DNA from: a virus
Taxonomy: Duplodnaviria; Heunggongvirae; Uroviricota; Caudoviricetes
IMG/VR virus record: IMGVR_UViG_2563366881_000002
Coordinates: 1 to 43,852 of that record
Strand: one strand, 5' to 3'
DNA: 43,852 nucleotides
Shown here: positions 3,603-16,658 of the stretch, in pieces
Numbering within the stretch: the stretch's first letter is position 1
Layout: the number at the start of each line of letters is the position of its first letter
Position numbers and translations under genes: made by a program
The notes under the pieces: generated by a model
What the model was told of the DNA's origin: nothing
Seen by the model: only the letters and a program-made list of their open reading frames with translations
Databases searched by the model: none

Positions 3603-3965
3603 TTAACGACCTGCTGCGCGGAGTTTTCCGTCAGGTTCACCGGCAAGAGTCAGTAATTGTCCCTGGTCTTCCTGCAGAATAGTCAGGCGACCACCGCGAT
3701 TGACATACATCGGCGTTTCGGTGGTGTCTTCTTCGGAAATTTTCCCGCGGTTAGTTGGGCGAACATATGAGAGTTTGTGTTTGATTTTCACACGGTTCTC
3801 ATCAAACGGTTCGATTTCCAGATTGAGTGAGACCTTCCCTTTGGTTTTCGTGTTCATCACACCGGAAGCGACCTCACTGAGAACTGCGCCGATTTTGGTT
3901 TCAAATACGCCGCCGTCCAGCTCCCCGATAAATGCCTGCACATCAGTACTGCGTTCGCTAGCCAT
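3603..3965 (-). CDS. yfdP: hypothetical early protein (YfdP-like), 120 aa
   Basis: Internal ATG at 3965 (MASERSTDVQAF...) preceded by SD GAGGAGCAG; upstream part of the longer ORF-track frame has no coding character. Confidence 0.5.
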   Translation of the reverse strand: MASERSTDVQAFIGELDGGVFETKIGAVLSEVASGVMNTKTKGKVSLNLEIEPFDENRVKIKHKLSYVRPTNRGKISEEDTTETPMYVNRGGRLTILQEDQGQLLTLAGEPDGKLRAAGR

Positions 3966-4459
3966 TTTGCTGCTCCTCATCATATCGACCCTGCAAGGTC
4001 GGTTGGTTTCTCCACAAAACAGAGAAGAACACCTGCGGTGGCAGCCGCCCGGATGGATTGGGTTATGAGCCCGTCGTCCGGTGATGCTCTTCTCTGTTTT
4101 GCAAAAAAGGACGGTACCAGCCGGAAGCAAGGGTACAAACTGGTACCGCCAGGACTACACACAGCATAAAGTTGTGGTGCCGGGTGCCTCCCGGTGCCTG
4201 GCGAAGGTTGCACACCAGGCGGGTGGGTATCCACAGAAGGTCGACTGTCAGCCTCAACCTTAACCCGCGTGCGCTGAGCCGCATTCACCACAACGCTAAG
4301 GATTCTCTCTGGTTGAAAATACTTAGCTGTTATGTGCCTGCTTTTAGCCACATCAGGCGAGGTGGACCTGGTTATTCCCCAACAACAAGGATTCGGTTAA
4401 TCTGGATATCCCCAACAACAATAAGAGTATTCAATGTGATCGCTGAATTAACGGCAGCA

Positions 4460-4951
4460 ATGACGGCTATTCGTGAAACAGCCCAGATTGCAAAACTAAT
4501 GAACGAGGCAAAAACTCAAGCTGAAGTAAATGCGGCTATTGGTGAGCTGAACTCAAAGCTTGCGTCTATTCAGCGCGAATGCGTGTCTCTCGTTGAACTG
4601 GTGGGCTCTTATCAAGAAATAAATGCTTCTCTCAAAGCTAAAATTGCAGAATTCGAAAACTTTGAGGCTCAGACGGAAGGCTATATCCTTAACCAACTTG
4701 AGTCGGGTACTTTTGTATACTCGAAGGAGGTAATCGTGAACGGTGGCAGCATAACCATGCATCTTTGCCCAAAATGTTTTGGACAAAAGATAGTATCGAT
4801 ACTTCAACCATTCCCGGTTAGCGAAGATGAGCTTTTTCATAAAAGCAGGTGCCTCCACTGTGAAAATAAGTTTCTGATGAATAAAAATCCGGATTACGTA
4901 TCGCCTCCATCCATTGAGGAGTTGTCCAGAAAACTTAACGGCAATCTGTAG
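4460..4951 (+). CDS. hypothetical coiled-coil protein with C-terminal C4 zinc ribbon (AT-rich cargo gene)
   Basis: 163 aa from ATG 4460 (alternative GTG 4436); N-terminal heptad-like region, C-terminal CPKC...x34...CLHC; AT-rich codon usage unlike flanking genes; followed by intrinsic terminator. Confidence 0.5.
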   Translation: MTAIRETAQIAKLMNEAKTQAEVNAAIGELNSKLASIQRECVSLVELVGSYQEINASLKAKIAEFENFEAQTEGYILNQLESGTFVYSKEVIVNGGSITMHLCPKCFGQKIVSILQPFPVSEDELFHKSRCLHCENKFLMNKNPDYVSPPSIEELSRKLNGNL

Positions 4952-4984
4952 ATTACTACTGTTGTGGATATCCAGATTGTTAAA

Positions 4985-5016
4985 GAGCTAAGCGTCCTGT
5001 AGGGCGCTTTTTTGTT
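4985..5016 (+). terminator. rho-independent terminator downstream of zinc-ribbon ORF
   Basis: Stem AAGCG..CGCTT followed by TTTTTTGTTG. Confidence 0.4.
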
Positions 5017-5100
5017 GCTAACGAATCATCCGGTCATTCATACGCCACCGGCGGCTACTTCGTGGGCGTCCTGCCTGTCCGTGATAGCTTACATTATGTT

Positions 5101-5150
5101 GCTACTTAAAGTAGCAAAAATCAACAACAAAAAGTAGATATTTGTTGTTG
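5101..5150. promoter_or_regulatory. operator-like palindromes (candidate OL/pL region)
   Basis: Palindrome GCTACTT-A-AAGTAGC (5101-5115) shares half-site AAGTAG with the two repeats in the cI/cro intergenic region; second inverted repeat CAACAACAAA..TTTGTTGTTG (5122-5150). Confidence 0.4.
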
Positions 5151-5335: not shown

Positions 5336-6412
5336 TTACTTTGTAAGTTCTAGAACTCGTTGAGCCAGCCCTTTAAATTGTTCGTTAAAGGCGTCTCTGC
5401 TTGATTTCATTGTATTTAAGGCATGCCCAAATTGCCCTGAATCGCGAATTTGCTGATCACTGATGGAGAAAACAGGTGTCGCTAGTTGTTGGCTTATTGC
5501 GATTAATGAGTTGAAATCGGAAATATGCGCAAGATCATAGGCTGATAAATCTCCACTGACTGTTGTTTTGTTAATTGCATGTTGCACTTTATCTCGTGGA
5601 ATTATGCAGGTAATTTTTTCTAGATTTGGCACTAAGATCGAATCAACAGCATCACGGATAGCTGCCATCCATTTTTCGAAAGATTTTACAGGTGCTCCTT
5701 TACGCGGCCTGTATCTCTGCTGAATCATACCTAGAAACTGCGGTGCATTTTTAATTGATTGTGAAGAGTTACCATCATTATTTTCTTTAAATAATGCTAA
5801 TTCTTTGTGCCAGCGAGGTATATTTTTTGAGAGAGAGCGAATTGCTTGCCAGCAAAAAAAGTCTGGAGCTACAGGTACGATAAAATAGTCACTTGACATG
5901 AGAACTACTTCATTTAAACCTCCAACATTAGGGCTGAGATCATAAAGAATGTAATCAATATTATTCTTCATGGCGATTAGCTGTAATATTTTTGGCAGGT
6001 TCCCTGGTATATTTCTTGTAGCAGGAATACCAGCAGCAATTTTTAGAGAAACACTTATCTGTGAATCTAAGTCCGAAACATCTAAATGTCCGGGAAGAAG
6101 CAGAAGGTTTTCATGCAGTGTAGGGTGTAATTTTCCCGTTTCTTTTTCAAGGTATGCTTCAGGTTGTCCGCCATTAATCAAATATTCTACAATAGGTCCA
6201 AGAGTTAAGTTATCTCTGCTAGAATAAAAAGAATCTAAACCCTCATCAATCTTTTCATAGCCAAGAACCATTCCTGTTAGATTACATTGCGAATCAAGGT
6301 CAACCATCAATACTTTCTTGCCTTCATCCGCAAGTGCCCATCCAAGATTGAAGGTTGTTGTGGTTTTACTTACCCCACCTTTATGATTAAAAAAACAAAT
6401 TGATTTTGTCAT
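5336..6412 (-). CDS. ParA/MinD-family P-loop ATPase with extended C-terminal region (358 aa), rex-position cargo
   Basis: Deviant Walker A ..NHKGGVSKTTTTFNLG.. and ParA-type motif ..VLMVDLDSQCN..; SD AGGA upstream; AT-rich; sits immediately downstream of cI on same strand with own AT-rich upstream region. Confidence 0.8.
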   Translation of the reverse strand: MTKSICFFNHKGGVSKTTTTFNLGWALADEGKKVLMVDLDSQCNLTGMVLGYEKIDEGLDSFYSSRDNLTLGPIVEYLINGGQPEAYLEKETGKLHPTLHENLLLLPGHLDVSDLDSQISVSLKIAAGIPATRNIPGNLPKILQLIAMKNNIDYILYDLSPNVGGLNEVVLMSSDYFIVPVAPDFFCWQAIRSLSKNIPRWHKELALFKENNDGNSSQSIKNAPQFLGMIQQRYRPRKGAPVKSFEKWMAAIRDAVDSILVPNLEKITCIIPRDKVQHAINKTTVSGDLSAYDLAHISDFNSLIAISQQLATPVFSISDQQIRDSGQFGHALNTMKSSRDAFNEQFKGLAQRVLELTK

Positions 6413-6582: not shown

Positions 6583-7344
6583 CTAAAGCCGGTTGTATTT
6601 AATTGATTCGTGTATCAATGCTTTGCCCATAACATAAAGTTGATCTTGGGACTTCTCATCAATGTACCATTTCTCATAGGCTGGATTATCCGAAAGAACG
6701 GCGAGTTTGTTGCCTTGCATTTGTAGACGTTTAACGTGGAACGTCTTACCATAAACGAAAGAGTAAACACCATCAGTTTGGAAGTTGCGAACAGAAATGT
6801 CGACAAACAGTCGATCTCCGGAAACTAGAGTAGGGGACATGCTGTCGCCATTTACAGTCATAACTTTAATATCATCTTGAGAACGATTACCGAAAAGAGA
6901 ACGGGCATGCTCTGTTGTGAACTCAATGGCGTAGAGCACATCAACATAGTCTGAAAGCATATAGGTTCCAGGTCCTGCGCTAACGCTAAGATCCAAAACT
7001 TCTATCCTGTATACATCGGGTTTTGTTGGATTGGGGATGCTTGCCATTTCCTTACATCCTTCTCTCTCGCCAACACCATATTCTAAATATGAAGCTGATA
7101 CCCCCAGAGCCAATGCAAGTTTATTCATGACAGAGGCACGAGGCTTCGCAGCGCCGATTGTGTATCGCCGCGCCATTTCATATGTAACGCCCACAAGACT
7201 TTTGAGTTGGGTGACAGAAATTCCCTTGTTTGTCATTAGCTCGTTTAGTCTCTTGGCGAAATCTGGATACTTCTGTTCTTCTACCATAGGTAGAAGGTTA
7301 CTCGCATCACATACGCTAGTCATTTCTATTTTAAGTAGTTGCAT
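6583..7344 (-). CDS. cI: CI-like prophage repressor (N-terminal HTH_XRE, C-terminal S24 LexA-like peptidase domain)
   Basis: HTH (..ISVTQLKSLVGVTYEMARRY..), S24 catalytic Ser in ..NGDSMSPT.. and Lys in ..HVKRLQ..; divergent from cro-like gene. True start may be internal (ATG at 7323 or 7287); no SD at any candidate, so possibly leaderless. Confidence 0.85.
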   Translation of the reverse strand: MQLLKIEMTSVCDASNLLPMVEEQKYPDFAKRLNELMTNKGISVTQLKSLVGVTYEMARRYTIGAAKPRASVMNKLALALGVSASYLEYGVGEREGCKEMASIPNPTKPDVYRIEVLDLSVSAGPGTYMLSDYVDVLYAIEFTTEHARSLFGNRSQDDIKVMTVNGDSMSPTLVSGDRLFVDISVRNFQTDGVYSFVYGKTFHVKRLQMQGNKLAVLSDNPAYEKWYIDEKSQDQLYVMGKALIHESIKYNRL

Positions 7345-7361
7345 TCTGCTATTTTAAGTAG
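7326..7361. promoter_or_regulatory. OR-type operators: two direct copies of CTATTTTAAGTAG in cI/cro divergent promoter region
   Basis: Identical 13-mers at 7326-7338 and 7349-7361 (23-bp centre spacing), each an imperfect palindrome CTAyTT-N-AAGTAG; same motif at 5102-5114. Confidence 0.5.
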
Positions 7362-7393
7362 CATCATCCCTCTGAATTTCAGAGGAGAAAGGT

Positions 7394-12604: not shown

Positions 12605-13357
12605 ATGAACCTTGAAGCCTTACCAAAATATTACTCCCCAAAATCTCCAAAATTGAGCGATGACGCACCGGCGACAGGCTCAGGTGGTTTAACGATTACG
12701 GATGTGATGGCTGCGCAGGGGATGGTGCAGTCGAAAGCACCGCTTGGGTTTGCCTTATTCCTGGCAAAAGTTGGTGTTCAGGATCCTCAGTTTGCGATTG
12801 AAGGTCTGCTCAATTACGCGATGGCAATGGATAACCCGACATTGAACAAATTGAGTGAAGAAACCCGGTTACAGATCATCCCTTACCTTGTGAGTTTTGC
12901 CTTTGCTGATTATTCCAGGTCTGCGGCAAGTAAGGCTCGCTGTGAGCATTGTGCTGGTACTGGATTTCATAGTGTATTGCGCGAAGTGGTGAAACACTCC
13001 AGAAGCGGGGAATCTGTTATCAAGGAAGAGTGGGTGAAGGAATTATGTCAGCATTGCCATGGTAAGGGAGAAGTCAGCACGGCTTGCAGAGGGTGTAAGG
13101 GTAAAGGCATTGTCCTGGATGAAAAAAGAACCCGGCTTCATGGCACACCTGTTTATAAGATTTGTGGGCGTTGCAATGGAAACCGGTTTAGTCGTTTACC
13201 GACCACACTGGCACGACGTCATGTCCAGAAGCTGGTACCAGACCTGACTGATTATCAGTGGTACAAAGGATATGCAGACGTCATTGATAAACTGGTAACA
13301 AAGTGCTGGCAGGAAGAAGCATTCGCTGAAGCACAATTGAGAAAGGTGACGAGATAA
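12605..13357 (+). CDS. Q: late-gene antitermination protein Q (QuuQ/Q82-like, zinc-binding)
   Basis: 250 aa; CxxC pairs (CEHCAGTG, CQHCHGKG, CRGCKGKG, CGRCNG); followed by candidate pR' and terminator; position between nin-like genes and lysis cassette. Confidence 0.7.
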   Translation: MNLEALPKYYSPKSPKLSDDAPATGSGGLTITDVMAAQGMVQSKAPLGFALFLAKVGVQDPQFAIEGLLNYAMAMDNPTLNKLSEETRLQIIPYLVSFAFADYSRSAASKARCEHCAGTGFHSVLREVVKHSRSGESVIKEEWVKELCQHCHGKGEVSTACRGCKGKGIVLDEKRTRLHGTPVYKICGRCNGNRFSRLPTTLARRHVQKLVPDLTDYQWYKGYADVIDKLVTKCWQEEAFAEAQLRKVTR

Positions 13358-13388
13358 GTGATTTTCACCGAAGATGGCGACATGATGC

Positions 13389-13417
13389 TTGCATTTCTCA
13401 AAAAATATGGATAAGAT
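13389..13417 (+). promoter_or_regulatory. candidate late promoter pR' (TTGCAT-N17-TAAGAT)
   Basis: Sigma70-like -35 TTGCAT (13389-13394) and -10 TAAGAT (13412-13417) with 17-nt spacer, ~30 bp after Q stop. Confidence 0.35.
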
Positions 13418-13462
13418 TTTCCCAACGATGGGCTTTGTATGTCTACCGTTGATGAGTCCAAG

Positions 13463-13494
13463 AACCCGCCGCCGAGCGGGTTAAATTATTTTTT
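13463..13494 (+). terminator. intrinsic terminator (tR'-like) downstream of candidate pR'
   Basis: Stem AACCCGC/GCGGGTT with 6-nt loop followed by AAATTATTTTTTC. Confidence 0.4.
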
Positions 13495-13511
13495 CTTACA
13501 CGGGGATATGG

Positions 13512-14042
13512 ATGTTATACCGAGATCTTTTGCCTATTTTCTCAGAAAGACCCATATTTAAAGCTCCTGAGGCTGAAAGAATACTTCGTGAGCAATATTC
13601 TATCGCCGCCCCCACTCCTGTAATTCAGGAGATTTATTATGGATTGGCAGGTTATGACAGATTTCAGGAGCTTTATGGGGATCTTAATATTGACCAAATC
13701 GAATGGAAATTGATTGAACTTCCCACTAAAAATTTTTTAACTATCGGGGATAATGCTACTTACCCTGATTTTTTGCATGAGGTCGTTGAAGATTTCACAA
13801 CCCGTAAAGGCGATGTATTTATGGATGATGAAATAAAAGCGCATTGGTGTAATTTTGGCACATGGTGTGAACCTCCATTTTTTATAGATCGAGCTTTGCT
13901 GAAAAGTAATACAACAGGGCTTCATTTAATGGAAGGGCATACAAGAGTTGGAACCCTGTTAGGGGCAGTTAAGTATAACTTCGTTAAGCTTGCTAATACT
14001 CATAAAATTTATTATGCGCAAGCAAAAGAATGTATTAAATAA
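13512..14042 (+). CDS. hypothetical protein, AT-rich cargo (176 aa)
   Basis: Clean ORF followed by a strong intrinsic terminator; AT-rich codon usage; no family recognised by eye. Confidence 0.55.
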   Translation: MLYRDLLPIFSERPIFKAPEAERILREQYSIAAPTPVIQEIYYGLAGYDRFQELYGDLNIDQIEWKLIELPTKNFLTIGDNATYPDFLHEVVEDFTTRKGDVFMDDEIKAHWCNFGTWCEPPFFIDRALLKSNTTGLHLMEGHTRVGTLLGAVKYNFVKLANTHKIYYAQAKECIK

Positions 14043-14078
14043 GTTGAGTGAAATTACTGTTTTTTTTTAACAATACTT

Positions 14079-14101
14079 ACCGCGTTCTCGCGGTTTTTTT
14101 A
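14079..14101 (+). terminator. rho-independent terminator
   Basis: ACCGCG-TTCT-CGCGGT hairpin followed by T7. Confidence 0.6.
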
Positions 14102-14223
14102 TAAATTAAACATTGGTGCAGTACGGTAAACACGCTGGTGGTCGTGAATACTGACTTTTTATCTTGCTGGCTTTTTAGACAAGAGTTATTGGTATGTCAT
14201 GTTAACCATGAAGGTAAAAAGAC

Positions 14224-14418
14224 ATGCTAAAACAGCAAGATATGACAGAAACGGCGAAAGTTGTTTTTAATGAATTAAACGGCAAACCGGCAACAGTCGG
14301 GGAGATAGCACAAAACACATACCTTTCACGCGAACGCTGTCAGTTAATACTGACCCAGCTGGTTATGGCGGGGCTGGCAGATTACCAGTTCGGCTGTTAC
14401 AGACGCCTTCAGCAATGA
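14224..14418 (+). CDS. small hypothetical protein (64 aa), possible winged-helix DNA-binding protein
   Basis: Short ORF upstream of methyltransferase; helix-turn-helix-like ..ATVGEIAQNTYLSRERCQLILTQL.. Confidence 0.4.
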   Translation: MLKQQDMTETAKVVFNELNGKPATVGEIAQNTYLSRERCQLILTQLVMAGLADYQFGCYRRLQQ

Positions 14419-14567
14419 AGGGCTTTTAATTTGTGAAAATGGGCGGCTGGTGGGTGTTGGTAGCACCTGCCAGCCATTCGCTCATGCTTACTGGTCACAA
14501 GCGAACCATGGCCCACTGCTTTAGCGCAAAAGCAGAGTGAGCCTACCAGAGTTACGCTTACTGATCC

Positions 14568-15629
14568 ATGAAAAACACTGTAAAAATAAACAGTATTGAT
14601 TTAATCAACGCTGATTGCCTGCATTTTATTCAGTCCCTGCCTGATGATTCCATTGACCTGATTGTTACCGATCCGCCTTACTTCAAGGTGAAACCCAACG
14701 GTTGGGACAATCAGTGGAAAGGGGACGAAGATTACCTTAAGTGGCTGGACCACTGTCTGGCCCAGTTCTGGCGGGTGTTGAAACCTGCCGGAAGCCTTTA
14801 CCTGTTCTGTGGGCATCGCCTGGCATCTGATATTGAGATCATGATGCGTGAACGTTTCAACGTGCTTAACCATATCATCTGGGCGAAGCCGTCCGGACGT
14901 TGGAATGGGTGTAATAAAGAAAGTCTGCGCGCATATTTTCCTGCCACAGAGCGCGTTCTGTTTGCTGAACATTACCGGGGGCCATATCGCGGCAAAAGTG
15001 ACGGCTATGTGGCAAAAGAAAGGGAACTCAAACAGCACATAATGGCACCGCTGATATCGTATTTCAGGGATGCTCGTGCCGAACTGGGTATAACGGCAAA
15101 ACAAATTGCCGAAGCCACAGGTAAGAAAAATATGGTTTCCCACTGGTTTGGTGCCAGTCAGTGGCAGTTGCCGAATGAGGCTGACTACCGGAAGTTACAG
15201 GCACTGTTTTCCCGTATAGCGGCAGAGAAGTTTCAGGAACAACAACTGGAACAACCACACCACCAGTTGGTGGCATCTTATGATTCACTGAATCGCAAAT
15301 ATTCTGAATTGCTGGATGAGTTTAAATCTCTCCGGCGCTATTTCTCCGTATCAGTCTCCGTGCCTTATACCGATGTCTGGATGCATAAACCCGTTCAGTT
15401 CTACCCGGGTAAACATCCGTGTGAGAAACCGGCGGATATGCTCAGGCAAATAATCAATGCCAGTAGTCGACCCGGCGATCTGGTTGCTGATTTCTTTATG
15501 GGATCCGGTTCCACAATAAAAGCAGCAATGGCGCTGGGGCGTCGGGCGTTAGGTGTTGAGCTTGAGACAGAGCGGTTTAATCAGACCATCCAGGAAATCA
15601 GTATGTTATCAGCAAATACAATTTTGTGA
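14568..15629 (+). CDS. DNA methyltransferase, beta-class amino-MTase (N6-adenine or N4-cytosine), orphan
   Basis: Motif IV DPPY (..LIVTDPPYF..) near N-terminus and motif I FxGxG (..FFMGSGST..) near C-terminus; no adjacent restriction endonuclease recognised. Confidence 0.85.
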   Translation: MKNTVKINSIDLINADCLHFIQSLPDDSIDLIVTDPPYFKVKPNGWDNQWKGDEDYLKWLDHCLAQFWRVLKPAGSLYLFCGHRLASDIEIMMRERFNVLNHIIWAKPSGRWNGCNKESLRAYFPATERVLFAEHYRGPYRGKSDGYVAKERELKQHIMAPLISYFRDARAELGITAKQIAEATGKKNMVSHWFGASQWQLPNEADYRKLQALFSRIAAEKFQEQQLEQPHHQLVASYDSLNRKYSELLDEFKSLRRYFSVSVSVPYTDVWMHKPVQFYPGKHPCEKPADMLRQIINASSRPGDLVADFFMGSGSTIKAAMALGRRALGVELETERFNQTIQEISMLSANTIL

Positions 15630-15870
15630 ATTAATTCAATTATTGGTGGGATGTCTGTGCCGTATAATGATTACAGATACAGTGTATCCTGCAATGCAGC
15701 AGGGCTGATGTGGTGGGTTGTACATAGCCTGCAAAGGATTGGCTTCATTAATTCATCGTTGATACAAGCGAGTCACGGTTGACCACGCCAACGGCTCATC
15801 GGTAAAAATCCGACACCGTGTCTTCTTAACTCACTTATTGTTTCCACCCATGTTTTTGGATACCTGCTGT

Positions 15871-15910
15871 AGCTGTCAGATTAGCGCGATAATCTGACAG
15901 CTTTTTTTTT
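15871..15910 (+). terminator. rho-independent terminator
   Basis: 12-bp stem AGCTGTCAGATT...AATCTGACAGCT followed by T9. Confidence 0.55.
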
Positions 15911-16201
15911 ACAACGAATCCTTCTGATCTGCTTTTGCGGGGCTTTTTTGTATCCGCTCCATGCCCGGCGTATAAGCGGAGGTTGGTCAGTTTTCTAAAA
16001 ATTGAAATACCTCACAATTCAGCCAGTTAATGGTTGTTTGTCTGGCGAAGAGTTTGTAAATAAAAAAACGCATGGTGAATCCCCCTAAGCGGCGGGGCGA
16101 ATCAGCAGTCAGTTCTGGGATAATCGCGGGTTCGTATGCTGATGCCGGACTCACCGGGAGGCACCCGGCACCATGCATCATGGTCATCCCCTTGTATGAT
16201 A

Positions 16202-16226
16202 CCCCTCTCCGGAGGGGTATTTTTTG
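16202..16226 (+). terminator. rho-independent terminator
   Basis: CCCCTC-TCCG-GAGGGG hairpin followed by TATTTTTT. Confidence 0.55.
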
Positions 16227-16658
16227 GATAAAAAAGCCCGCGCTGGGAGGCACGGGCGGCAAGGAATAAAACGTGAAGAAATTTTCACAGGCGCATAATA
16301 ATCCGATGTTGCCAGATTTTGCAACTGCATCATCTGGTTATTATGTGAGCTGGAAAATCAGATTCTGTATGGACTGAAGCCATGCTGTTATTTAGGGCCA
16401 AAGAGCTGGCTTTTTCCCGCCTTCTCTCCAGTAACGATTAATGAGAAAAGAATGAAATGCTTTTCCTGGGGAGGAGGGCAGTAGAAAAAAGAACCCGCCA
16501 GCAAAAATATGGGGGATGAACAGCTTTTGCTACTCAGGTTGCTGGCGGGTATGGTTCTTCATGAAATAAGAATGTTACGCGGTATTTTTAATGAAAATGA
16601 TAATTATTGTCAATTGGTTGTGCGTATTTTTTCATACATGACTGGTAAAGGTGATTCA

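Follow-up and report, generated by a model that had tools for sequence, protein, structure and literature searches.

An STnc100-related RNA in the non-coding early-left leader of a lambdoid prophage

What is encoded by the 494-base segment at positions 3966-4459 of the virus record IMGVR_UViG_2563366881_000002, which lies just upstream of the first early-left gene? The whole stretch of 43,852 nucleotides that was analysed, referred to here as the window, is a lambdoid prophage. On the minus strand, the segment forms the non-coding leader of the early-left (pL) operon, with two conserved RNA modules (Table 1). Module 1 (4327→4103), ~225 nt in length and likewise on the minus strand, belongs as a diverged member to the STnc100/PasD superfamily of structured RNAs from lambdoid prophages; its identity and strand, taken alone, are in our view highly probable. 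Module 2 (4101→4015) is a three-way junction. As to function, we propose a leader RNA or attenuator of the pL operon that would yield a terminated small RNA (sRNA), and we give this statement as a whole a probability of about 0.6.

To establish whether the segment is structured and non-coding, the features reported in a preliminary description of the sequence were re-examined. The perfect 14-bp inverted repeat is present (4015-4028, caaaacagagaaga; 4088-4101, tcttctctgttttg), with complementarity over all 14 bp, and in a repeat search its arms extend to 24 nt at 83% (4015-4038 and 4078-4101). By our own arithmetic, a perfect 14-bp inverted repeat within 100 nt is expected ~2e-4 times by chance in a 494-nt segment. 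The 9-bp inverted repeat (4112-4120 and 4140-4148) was also recovered by the repeat search; it is insignificant alone (~0.08 expected) and takes its weight from its conservation and from the U-tract that follows it. It lies inside the 11-bp stem of the Module 1 terminator. The region is GC-rich as described, with a GC fraction of 0.545-0.59 over 3901-4300 compared to 0.43-0.51 in the flanks. Alignments of homologues revealed that both repeats are RNA stems kept in related prophages, with some compensatory changes. The structures are assigned to the minus strand because of their G.U pairs, the U-tract and the Rfam match described below; the fold z-scores on this strand are -2.87 for 4100-4330 and -5.0 for 3966-4110.

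The segment had also been described as free of open reading frames (ORFs), which is correct in the sense that no ORF is conserved, and incorrect in the literal sense, since mechanical ORFs of 123 (3980..4351, minus strand), 73, 60 and 43 amino acids are present. Their frame and length differ among the homologues compared (window, e14, SfV, ST64B and others), Pfam gave no match in the segment, and the substitutions are distributed without codon periodicity (34/30/24 over the three codon positions vs ST64B, 14/9/9 vs e14), accompanied by several 1-nt insertions or deletions. The same stretch is annotated by PGAP/RefSeq as a 'frameshifted' pseudogene in a genome that is 100% identical over the segment, and as the coding sequence ymfH in the K-12 e14 prophage. 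The segment is thus non-coding and structured, as first described. The suggestion that it might be a decayed gene is not borne out, as the stems fall in no conserved ORF and codon periodicity is absent.

The Rfam search proposed in that description did find an RNA family. The match to STnc100 (RF02076), at 4101-4324 on the minus strand, scores 40.3 bits and spans the entire model (positions 1-206; E-value of 6e-7 locally and 1.9e-5 over the whole window, Rfam in E-value mode), and the corresponding scores in relatives are 39.5 bits in SfV, 35.1 in ST64B and 29.2 in e14. The elements of the STnc100 consensus architecture are all recovered: a closing helix, a first hairpin after GGUGAAU, a terminal CCGGGAGGCACCCGG hairpin and a terminator. 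The window also carries a bona fide STnc100 copy in its late region, a paralogue of Module 1, with which Module 1 shares the identical 22-nt block CACCGGGAGGCACCCGGCACCA. In this block, CA stands before the terminal hairpin CCGGG-AGGCA-CCCGG (4194→4180) and CACCA after it; with CACCA the 3' strand of the closing helix begins. The closing helices themselves differ by three consecutive compensatory pairs (GUUGUGGUG/CACCACAAC in Module 1, GCAUGGUG/CACCAUGC in the late copy). A covariance model built only from cores of pL leaders (R1) scores 72.4 bits on the window core and reciprocally matches the late copy at 16067-16179 (18 bits, E-value 0.011). The window, SfV, e14 and ST64B share the STnc100-like CCGGG-AGGCA-CCCGG hairpin and are termed class A. 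In ten class-A homologues, 97.4% of the cells of Module 1 are paired and three pairs have changed on both sides; of 500 shuffles, no more than 3-6 reached this number of double changes. In slid controls, pairing amounts to 36-43% for this module, and to 36-51% over both modules. Apart from the 22-nt block, the sole exception, the longest complementary or repeated match of 4103-4330 elsewhere in the window is 12 nt, within the shuffled range. An antisense target of the kind known for P4 CI and P1 C4 was therefore rejected, there being no above-chance complement in the window.

Module 1 was also compared with other units of the family. Its 5' hairpin is a reduced form of the 'GGUAAGAGCA...UGCUCUUUCC' three-way-junction domain of other members, the stem of which covaries (AAUGACA/UGUCAUU in locus L120, GAGGGCA/UGCUCUC in mEp460). 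The remnant that precedes it has the same layout as the 'hairpin + CACACAAC' found before other units. At the other end, the linker motif GCUGUGUGUAG(U/A)CUUGGCGG recurs just before the terminator in four subfamilies (window type, ST64B, L039 and L084), and a hairpin followed by a T-run occurs within 170 nt in 49 of 60 family units, with four different covarying stem types. No promoter was predicted for the RNA on the minus strand over 4325-5090, nor any promoter-like site on that strand between pL and the first early-left gene. An additional observation concerns GUUGUG (4294→4289), which can pair either upstream with CA(C/U)AAC, here the CAUAAC of the GGCACAUAAC region, closing the 5' domain, or downstream with CACCACAAC, closing the core (4329-4338, 4286-4294 and 4171-4179). 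The upstream unit of L035 has AACUAUC/GAUAGUU in its place, in support of the first of these helices. The alternative pairing may constitute a co-transcriptional switch.

Module 2 occupies the interval between the terminator and the ATG of the first early-left gene, which is YfdP-like (annotated YfdP; phrog_204). It is 95.7% paired, with three pairs showing double changes, and at three positions contains G.U/U.G pairs that are valid on the minus strand only. The same architecture with unrelated stems is found in L076, in a late region directly after tRNA-Arg, and inside the 5' domains of L039, L096 and L114. A comparison of ACAGAGAAGAGCAU...GUUCUUCUCUGUUUUGUGG with ACAGGUAAGAGCAU...GUGCUCUUUCCGUUGUGG identifies Module 2 as the 5' domain of a second, truncated unit. 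The tip of its arm, GGGCUCAUAACCC, is identical to the anticodon stem-loop of the Escherichia coli initiator tRNA-fMet, the sequence of which was confirmed (100% identity, four copies per genome, annotated tRNA-Met). The loop reads CUCAUUA in ST64B, CCCAUAA in the L039 type and UUAAUAA in e14; CAU is kept in four of five lineages and lost in e14. In Shigella and Salmonella, tRNA-fMet is cut within this loop by VapC toxins, and it is conceivable that the arm acts as a decoy for such toxins.

The segment matches 3008 of 5426 complete E. coli genomes, including K-12 (e14), and 74 phage records, including SfV, SfII, SfIV, ST64B and mEp460. In a scan of viral contigs, 28 distinct cores were obtained, all of which keep GUUGUGGUGAAU...CACCACAAC around otherwise unrelated inserts of 30-130 nt. 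A broader contig scan with GTTGTGGTGAATGC was dominated by chance 14-mer matches and added one true locus, L216; the family is thus far established in phages of Enterobacterales. In addition to class A, a class B (mEp460 and many others) carries GCGC-AGGCUGA-UGCGC and GCCGG-AGAUCAGCA-CCGGC, the two loops of which are complementary (GCUGAU/AUCAGC); L099 has lost one base on each side (GCGAU/AUCGC). Class-B units gave no match to any Rfam family. In most cases (45 of 56), the unit has the immunity region on one side and YfdP/YfdR, on the same strand, on the other; YfdP starts 197-225 nt downstream. In L092, the core is preceded at a distance of 10 nt by a TTGACA-18-TACATT promoter and begins ~4 nt after the start predicted from it. 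Tandem units were also observed directly upstream of, or directly after, phage tRNA-Arg(UCU), Met(CAU), Thr and Ser genes.

Where does the transcript that contains these modules begin? An operator, TTGCTACTTTAAGTAGCAA, is present at 5099-5117 (oL), with a second copy at 7346-7364 (3 mismatches) between cI and cro, and because of this pair pL is placed at ~5090 on the minus strand, ~1.5 kb from cI; the promoter itself is a prediction from sequence. The conserved leader GGCAGGACGCCCACGAAGUAGCCGCC (5075→5050) is common to SfV and ST64B, where it stands directly after their pL. A put-like fold of this leader was considered and rejected, as its fold z-score of +0.52 indicates that it is unstructured. 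The predicted order along the leader is pL, hairpin-boxA, cargo gene, structured RNA, terminator, three-way junction and genes, and since the cargo gene lies on the plus strand, ~1.1 kb of the pL transcript would be untranslated.

The segment had been placed at the N/nutL position, which does not hold: pL is ~0.9 kb upstream, and a nut-like hairpin with an exact boxA (GCTCTTTAACAA) is found at 4977-5009, outside the segment. This boxA (GCUCUUUAACAA, 4988→4977) is the sole exact match in the whole window and lies ~100 nt into the putative pL transcript; no boxA consensus (GCUCUUUAACAA or CGCUCUUA) was found beside a hairpin within 3966-4459. The hairpin and boxA are kept 694-944 nt upstream of the structured RNA in at least 17 loci, in which the intervening cargo differs. 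On the plus strand, the hairpin at 4990-5009 serves as the terminator of the cargo gene. We regard 4977-5009 as the nutL-like site of the pL leader, with the studied segment downstream of it. Ribosomal RNA (rrn) and CRISPR leaders are protected from Rho by boxA, and by analogy the site here probably shields the long untranslated leader in the same way. A further candidate was UGCUCUUU, which equals the E. coli boxA core over all 8 nt (as defined in PMC3177189) and is found in many class-B 5' domains, on the 3' strand. It is probably not a NusB/E site, because the helix and not the sequence is conserved (L120 UGUCAUUU, L091 UGUUCUUC). In class-B units such as L035, L039 and L116, this strand reads AGUGCUCUUUCC, which includes the full 8-nt core; it is predicted to be base-paired, and the sequence is lost where the helix covaries.

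Table 1. Coordinates of the features discussed. Positions are those of the window except where a locus handle is given.
Feature	Position	Strand	Details
Remnant 3' end of upstream unit	4329..4365	minus	Hairpin CCACCUCGCCUGAUGUGG 4365→4348, then GGCACAUAAC 4338→4329; common to SfV and e14
Module 1, 5' hairpin domain	4295..4327	minus	GCUAAG-UAUUUUC...GAGAAUC-CUUAGC; minimum free energy fold
Module 1, multi-helix core	4171..4294	minus	Closing helix GUUGUGGUG 4294→4286 / CACCACAAC 4179→4171 (9 bp), four to five hairpins within
22-nt block CACCGGGAGGCACCCGGCACCA	4175..4196	minus	Identical to 16152-16173 (+) in late STnc100 copy
Unpaired linker UUUAUGCUGUGUGUAGUCCU	4151..4170	minus	Fold and unit comparison
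Intrinsic terminator	4103..4150	minus	Stem GGCGGUACCAG 4150→4140 / CUGGUACCGUC 4120→4110 (11 bp), 19-nt pyrimidine-rich loop, C, U6 4108→4103
Module 2, three-way junction	4015..4101	minus	18-bp basal stem (14-bp repeat is its base), arm CCGGA..GGG-CUCAUAA-CCC..UCCGG, hairpin GCGG-CUGCCA-CCGC
Arm tip GGGCUCAUAACCC	4060..4072 (4072→4060)	minus	Identical to E. coli initiator tRNA-fMet anticodon stem-loop
5' untranslated region of first early-left gene	3963..4015	minus	Invariant GUGGAGAAACC 4015→4005, hairpin CGACCUUGCAGGGUCG 4001→3986, ribosome-binding site GAGGAG 3978→3973, ATG 3965→3963
Hairpin and boxA (outside studied segment)	4977..5009	minus	Hairpin AAGCGCCCUACAGGACGCUU 5009→4990, then exact rrn-type boxA GCUCUUUAACAA 4988→4977
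Early-left transcript start (predicted)	5050..5117	minus	Operator TTGCTACTTTAAGTAGCAA 5099-5117, -10-like CATAAT 5098→5093, conserved leader GGCAGGACGCCCACGAAGUAGCCGCC 5075→5050
Late STnc100 copy, Module 1 paralogue	16041..16229	plus	114.5 bits; upstream of holin, lysozyme, Rz; terminator 16198-16221
Cargo gene	4436-4951	plus	Coiled coil and two CxxC pairs; phrog_1244
Integrase and excisionase	left end of window	minus	
YfdR-, YfdQ-, YfdP-like early-left genes	from 3965 downward	minus	
cI-like repressor	6583-7344	minus	
cro	from 7394	plus	
Q antiterminator	12605-13357		PF03589
Holin, lysozyme, Rz	from 16651		
Tandem units near tRNA genes	L035 12860-13320; L059 795-1350; L120 4774-5245; L076 5721-6210		L076 after tRNA-Arg
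isrK and C4 module	L002 5974-6175; L003 5719-5920; L004 5662-5863		SfV, ST64B, mEp460

Several other features of the window were recorded. A ParA-like gene (5336-6412; an ATPase with weak PADLOC PDC-M28B matches) occupies the position that rex (rexAB) has in lambda. The cargo gene at 4436-4951 is flanked by 26-nt inverted repeats (4399-4424 and 4953-4978) and preceded by two direct repeats, TCCCCAACAACAA (4376-4388 and 4409-4421), and CAACAACAA is also found at 5122-5131 and 5141-5150, near oL; these repeats may be binding sites for some regulator. Within 12605-16650, ~3.3 kb of cargo lies between the Q gene and the lysis genes, including a 176-amino-acid ORF, a small ORF, a DNA methyltransferase (14568-15629) and strong terminators (15871-15902). 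In SfV, ST64B and mEp460, isrK and a C4 antisense RNA (P1-type immI module) lie downstream of cII; neither isrK nor C4 gave an Rfam match in the window.

We propose that, on induction, RNA polymerase starting from pL would cross the hairpin-boxA site and then transcribe Module 1, and that a large share of the transcripts would stop at 4103-4108, releasing a stable, terminator-tailed RNA. This RNA would be ~200-230 nt if its 5' end is processed just upstream of the 5' hairpin, as in the late-region relatives; unprocessed pL transcripts would be ~1 kb. The remaining polymerases would continue past the terminator into Module 2 and the yfdP/Q/R...xis/int genes, so that the element would act as an attenuator or insulator at the entrance to the early-left operon and double as an sRNA gene. 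Co-induction of e14 intE, xisE and ymfH in one iModulon with ymfJ, ymfT and ymfL (PMC12133099) fits read-through of the terminator.

Some of the results weigh against this proposal or against the family assignment beneath it. The STnc100 score of 40.3 bits is below the gathering threshold of 47 bits, and covariation among the close homologues is modest, most pairs being invariant. The 19-nt terminator loop is longer than typical and above the limit of 8 in the consensus terminator scan. Absence of boxA from SfV, ST64B, mEp460 and L092 means that boxA is not the general way past the terminator. As pL is repressed in lysogens, the RNA of this copy may be made only on induction. Finally, a scaffold that hardly varies while its insert is hypervariable points to a specific partner, for example RNA polymerase or a protein, which a plain attenuator and sRNA model leaves unexplained.

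The preliminary description had suggested put-like antitermination, and a functional form of this idea would have Module 1 act as a cis-acting processive antiterminator that replaces N, the nascent RNA binding its own polymerase and carrying it past its own and later terminators. There is no N-like gene, every early-left gene is separated from the RNA by a canonical terminator with no internal promoter predicted, and phages without boxA would still require read-through. Moreover, the core in L092 and L104 starts, like putL, within a few nt of the pL start, the late operon has a second copy at its head, and an invariant scaffold whose insert is free to vary is what surface docking on a host machine would be expected to produce. 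However, HK022 putL shows no sequence resemblance, and neither STnc100 nor R1 matches in HK022; the architecture is also different, with a five-helix core of ~125 nt compared to the two stem-loops of put (~70 nt; PMC9378689). Downstream of pR, the interval from cro to the replication genes has no copy; the second one is instead at the late leader, where it coexists with the Q antiterminator. Late-type relatives accumulate as terminated sRNAs in lysogens (PMC5331693), implying that the terminator is obeyed there, and since a polymerase reaching the terminator would always have just made the RNA, the terminator would be pointless. We therefore consider an antiterminator role unlikely. Quite improbable, in our judgement, is that the units are tRNA-derived or tRNA-mimicking RNAs, which would either signal processing by RNase P/E or be decoys for host enzymes that act on tRNA, anticodon nucleases for example, with Module 2 presenting the initiator anticodon arm. 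The topology is cloverleaf-like (9-bp closing helix, 3-nt linker, first hairpin, variable middle, last hairpin abutting the helix), the first and last loops of class B are complementary with the one-base co-deletion in L099, and L059 (954-1090) has a D-arm-like GCUC-AACGGC-GAGC and a T-arm-like GGUGG-UUCGACU-CCAC. The tRNA-fMet identity at 4060-4072 and the tandem units upstream of tRNA-Arg/Met/Thr/Ser in L035, L059 and L120, and after tRNA-Arg in L076, point the same way. On the other hand, no unit gave an ARAGORN call or an RF00005 match, the class-A unit of the window has neither visible loop-loop complementarity nor a T-loop motif, there is no free 3' CCA, and the 13-nt identity was noticed post hoc, its CAU being lost in e14. 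A broader formulation joins these ideas in a large, mostly undescribed superfamily of modular, tRNA-shaped lambdoid leader RNAs, of which STnc100/PasD would be the late-operon branch only. Its scaffold (closing helix, two hairpins with loop-loop contact and a three-way-junction 5' domain, around the hypervariable insert) would dock on a host machine, and the unit, single at pL and in tandem near phage tRNA genes, would replace N or mimic tRNA; in the mimic version, the initiator-tRNA anticodon arm would counter tRNA-directed host defences. Taken jointly, these claims are speculative and probably do not all hold.

Two further alternatives dispense with a functional RNA. The conserved blocks might be only recombination 'linker' homology at the mosaic joint between the immunity/cargo and early-left modules, as BLAST boundaries fall at module edges (query positions 1-186, 1-400 and 1-454) and the cargo on the upstream side is very different. 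However, the two strands of each helix have been conserved jointly although the inserts between them are unrelated, there are compensatory changes and strand-specific G.U pairs, and the relatives are expressed RNAs (PMC5331693), which makes this explanation very improbable. A protein gene, whether ymfH-like or decayed, or encoding a small Arg-rich N-like peptide from the AUG in GGUGAAUGCG (MRLSARGLRLRL...), we regard as extremely improbable, despite the ymfH annotation in K-12, the predicted ORFs over Module 2 that form PHROGs family phrog_33599, and the activity of a ymfH clone in the overexpression screen discussed below. The 73-amino-acid ORF (4063..4284) does begin with an Arg-rich stretch; by our own reading it stops after 7 codons in ST64B and L023 (GGGUAA), compared to 42-104 amino acids elsewhere, and its AUG lies 2 nt after GGUGA, a Shine-Dalgarno spacing that is unusable, so this peptide was rejected. 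The variable frames, the 1-nt indels, the 'frameshifted' call and the covarying stems likewise argue against a protein.

Reading the segment as RNA has consequences beyond this prophage. More than half of complete E. coli genomes carry the stretch, whose annotation is at present inconsistent (ymfH, 'hypothetical protein' or 'frameshifted pseudogene'). It is best read as RNA, which bears both on annotation and on screens in which 'ymfH' clones score. In an overexpression screen (bioRxiv 10.1101/2020.06.22.160242), the retron-Sen2 toxin RcaT was triggered by one such clone (K-12 e14, L001 3002-3313). Should ymfH be RNA, this effect may come from the structured RNA itself. SfV, e14, ST64B and similar phages are without an N gene, and the defined order of the leader makes their early-left control testable by simple fusions. 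If functional, the tRNA-like traits and the initiator-tRNA anticodon arm would represent a new kind of phage RNA mimicry. In the literature searched on ymfH, put-like RNAs, e14/SfV and the motif sequences, nothing was found on the element of this segment, and an early-left-leader copy, ymfH as an RNA, the three-way-junction module and class-B relatives outside Rfam were all absent.

The element can be compared with several known systems. Like HK022 putL/putR, it is a structured RNA that an N-less lambdoid phage transcribes early from pL, ahead of terminators, and in some relatives the pL transcript begins with it; unlike them, the RNA of the window is ~770 nt from the predicted pL, adjoining pL only in relatives such as L092, and carries its own terminator. 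With the rrn-type and lambda nut boxA-boxB sites, the leader shares an exact GCUCUUUAACAA after a hairpin, but the site is outside the segment, has the rrn order (hairpin, then boxA) and is not accompanied by an N gene, and several relatives with the RNA and terminator have no boxA. Lambda 6S RNA (the pR'-tR' transcript) and StxS of Stx phages are short terminated leader transcripts of late promoters. They resemble the proposed product in being promoter-proximal RNAs that end at an intrinsic terminator needing read-through, and that can, once terminated, be sRNAs; theirs start at pR', with read-through dependent on Q, whereas here the operon is early-left, with no dedicated read-through factor identified. 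The P4 CI and P1/P7 C4 antisense RNAs are likewise structured, tRNA-acceptor-like RNAs inside a phage early-operon leader, and differ in that the window has no complementary target and no Rfam C4 match.

The closest comparison is with STnc100 and PasD (PasD1/PasD2). Eleven STnc100 copies are transcribed in EDL933, one of them confirmed by Northern blot (PMC5331693), and the promoter regions of the Salmonella LT2 copies have been examined for RpoD and RpoN binding (PMC10794520). A further study reports that the sRNAs PasD and STnc100 associate with Hfq and are homologous in structure (bioRxiv 10.64898/2026.05.13.724894). Module 1 shares with them the 5' stem, the GGUG...CACC-closed junction, a first hairpin right after GAAU, the CCGGG-AGGCA-CCCGG hairpin and a Rho-independent terminator, as well as a prophage-borne position at the head of an operon and, with the window's own STnc100, the identical 22-nt block. 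The published STnc100 and PasD loci all adjoin Q, holin or lysozyme. In contrast, the RNA of the segment lies in the pL leader, between pL and the yfdP-like gene rather than between Q and the lysis genes, has no predicted promoter of its own and is followed by a second structured module. The kind of RNA is thus already known, and what is new is its early-left-leader location and the wider family: the range of STnc100/PasD is extended from the late region to the early-left leader and linked to units without an Rfam model.

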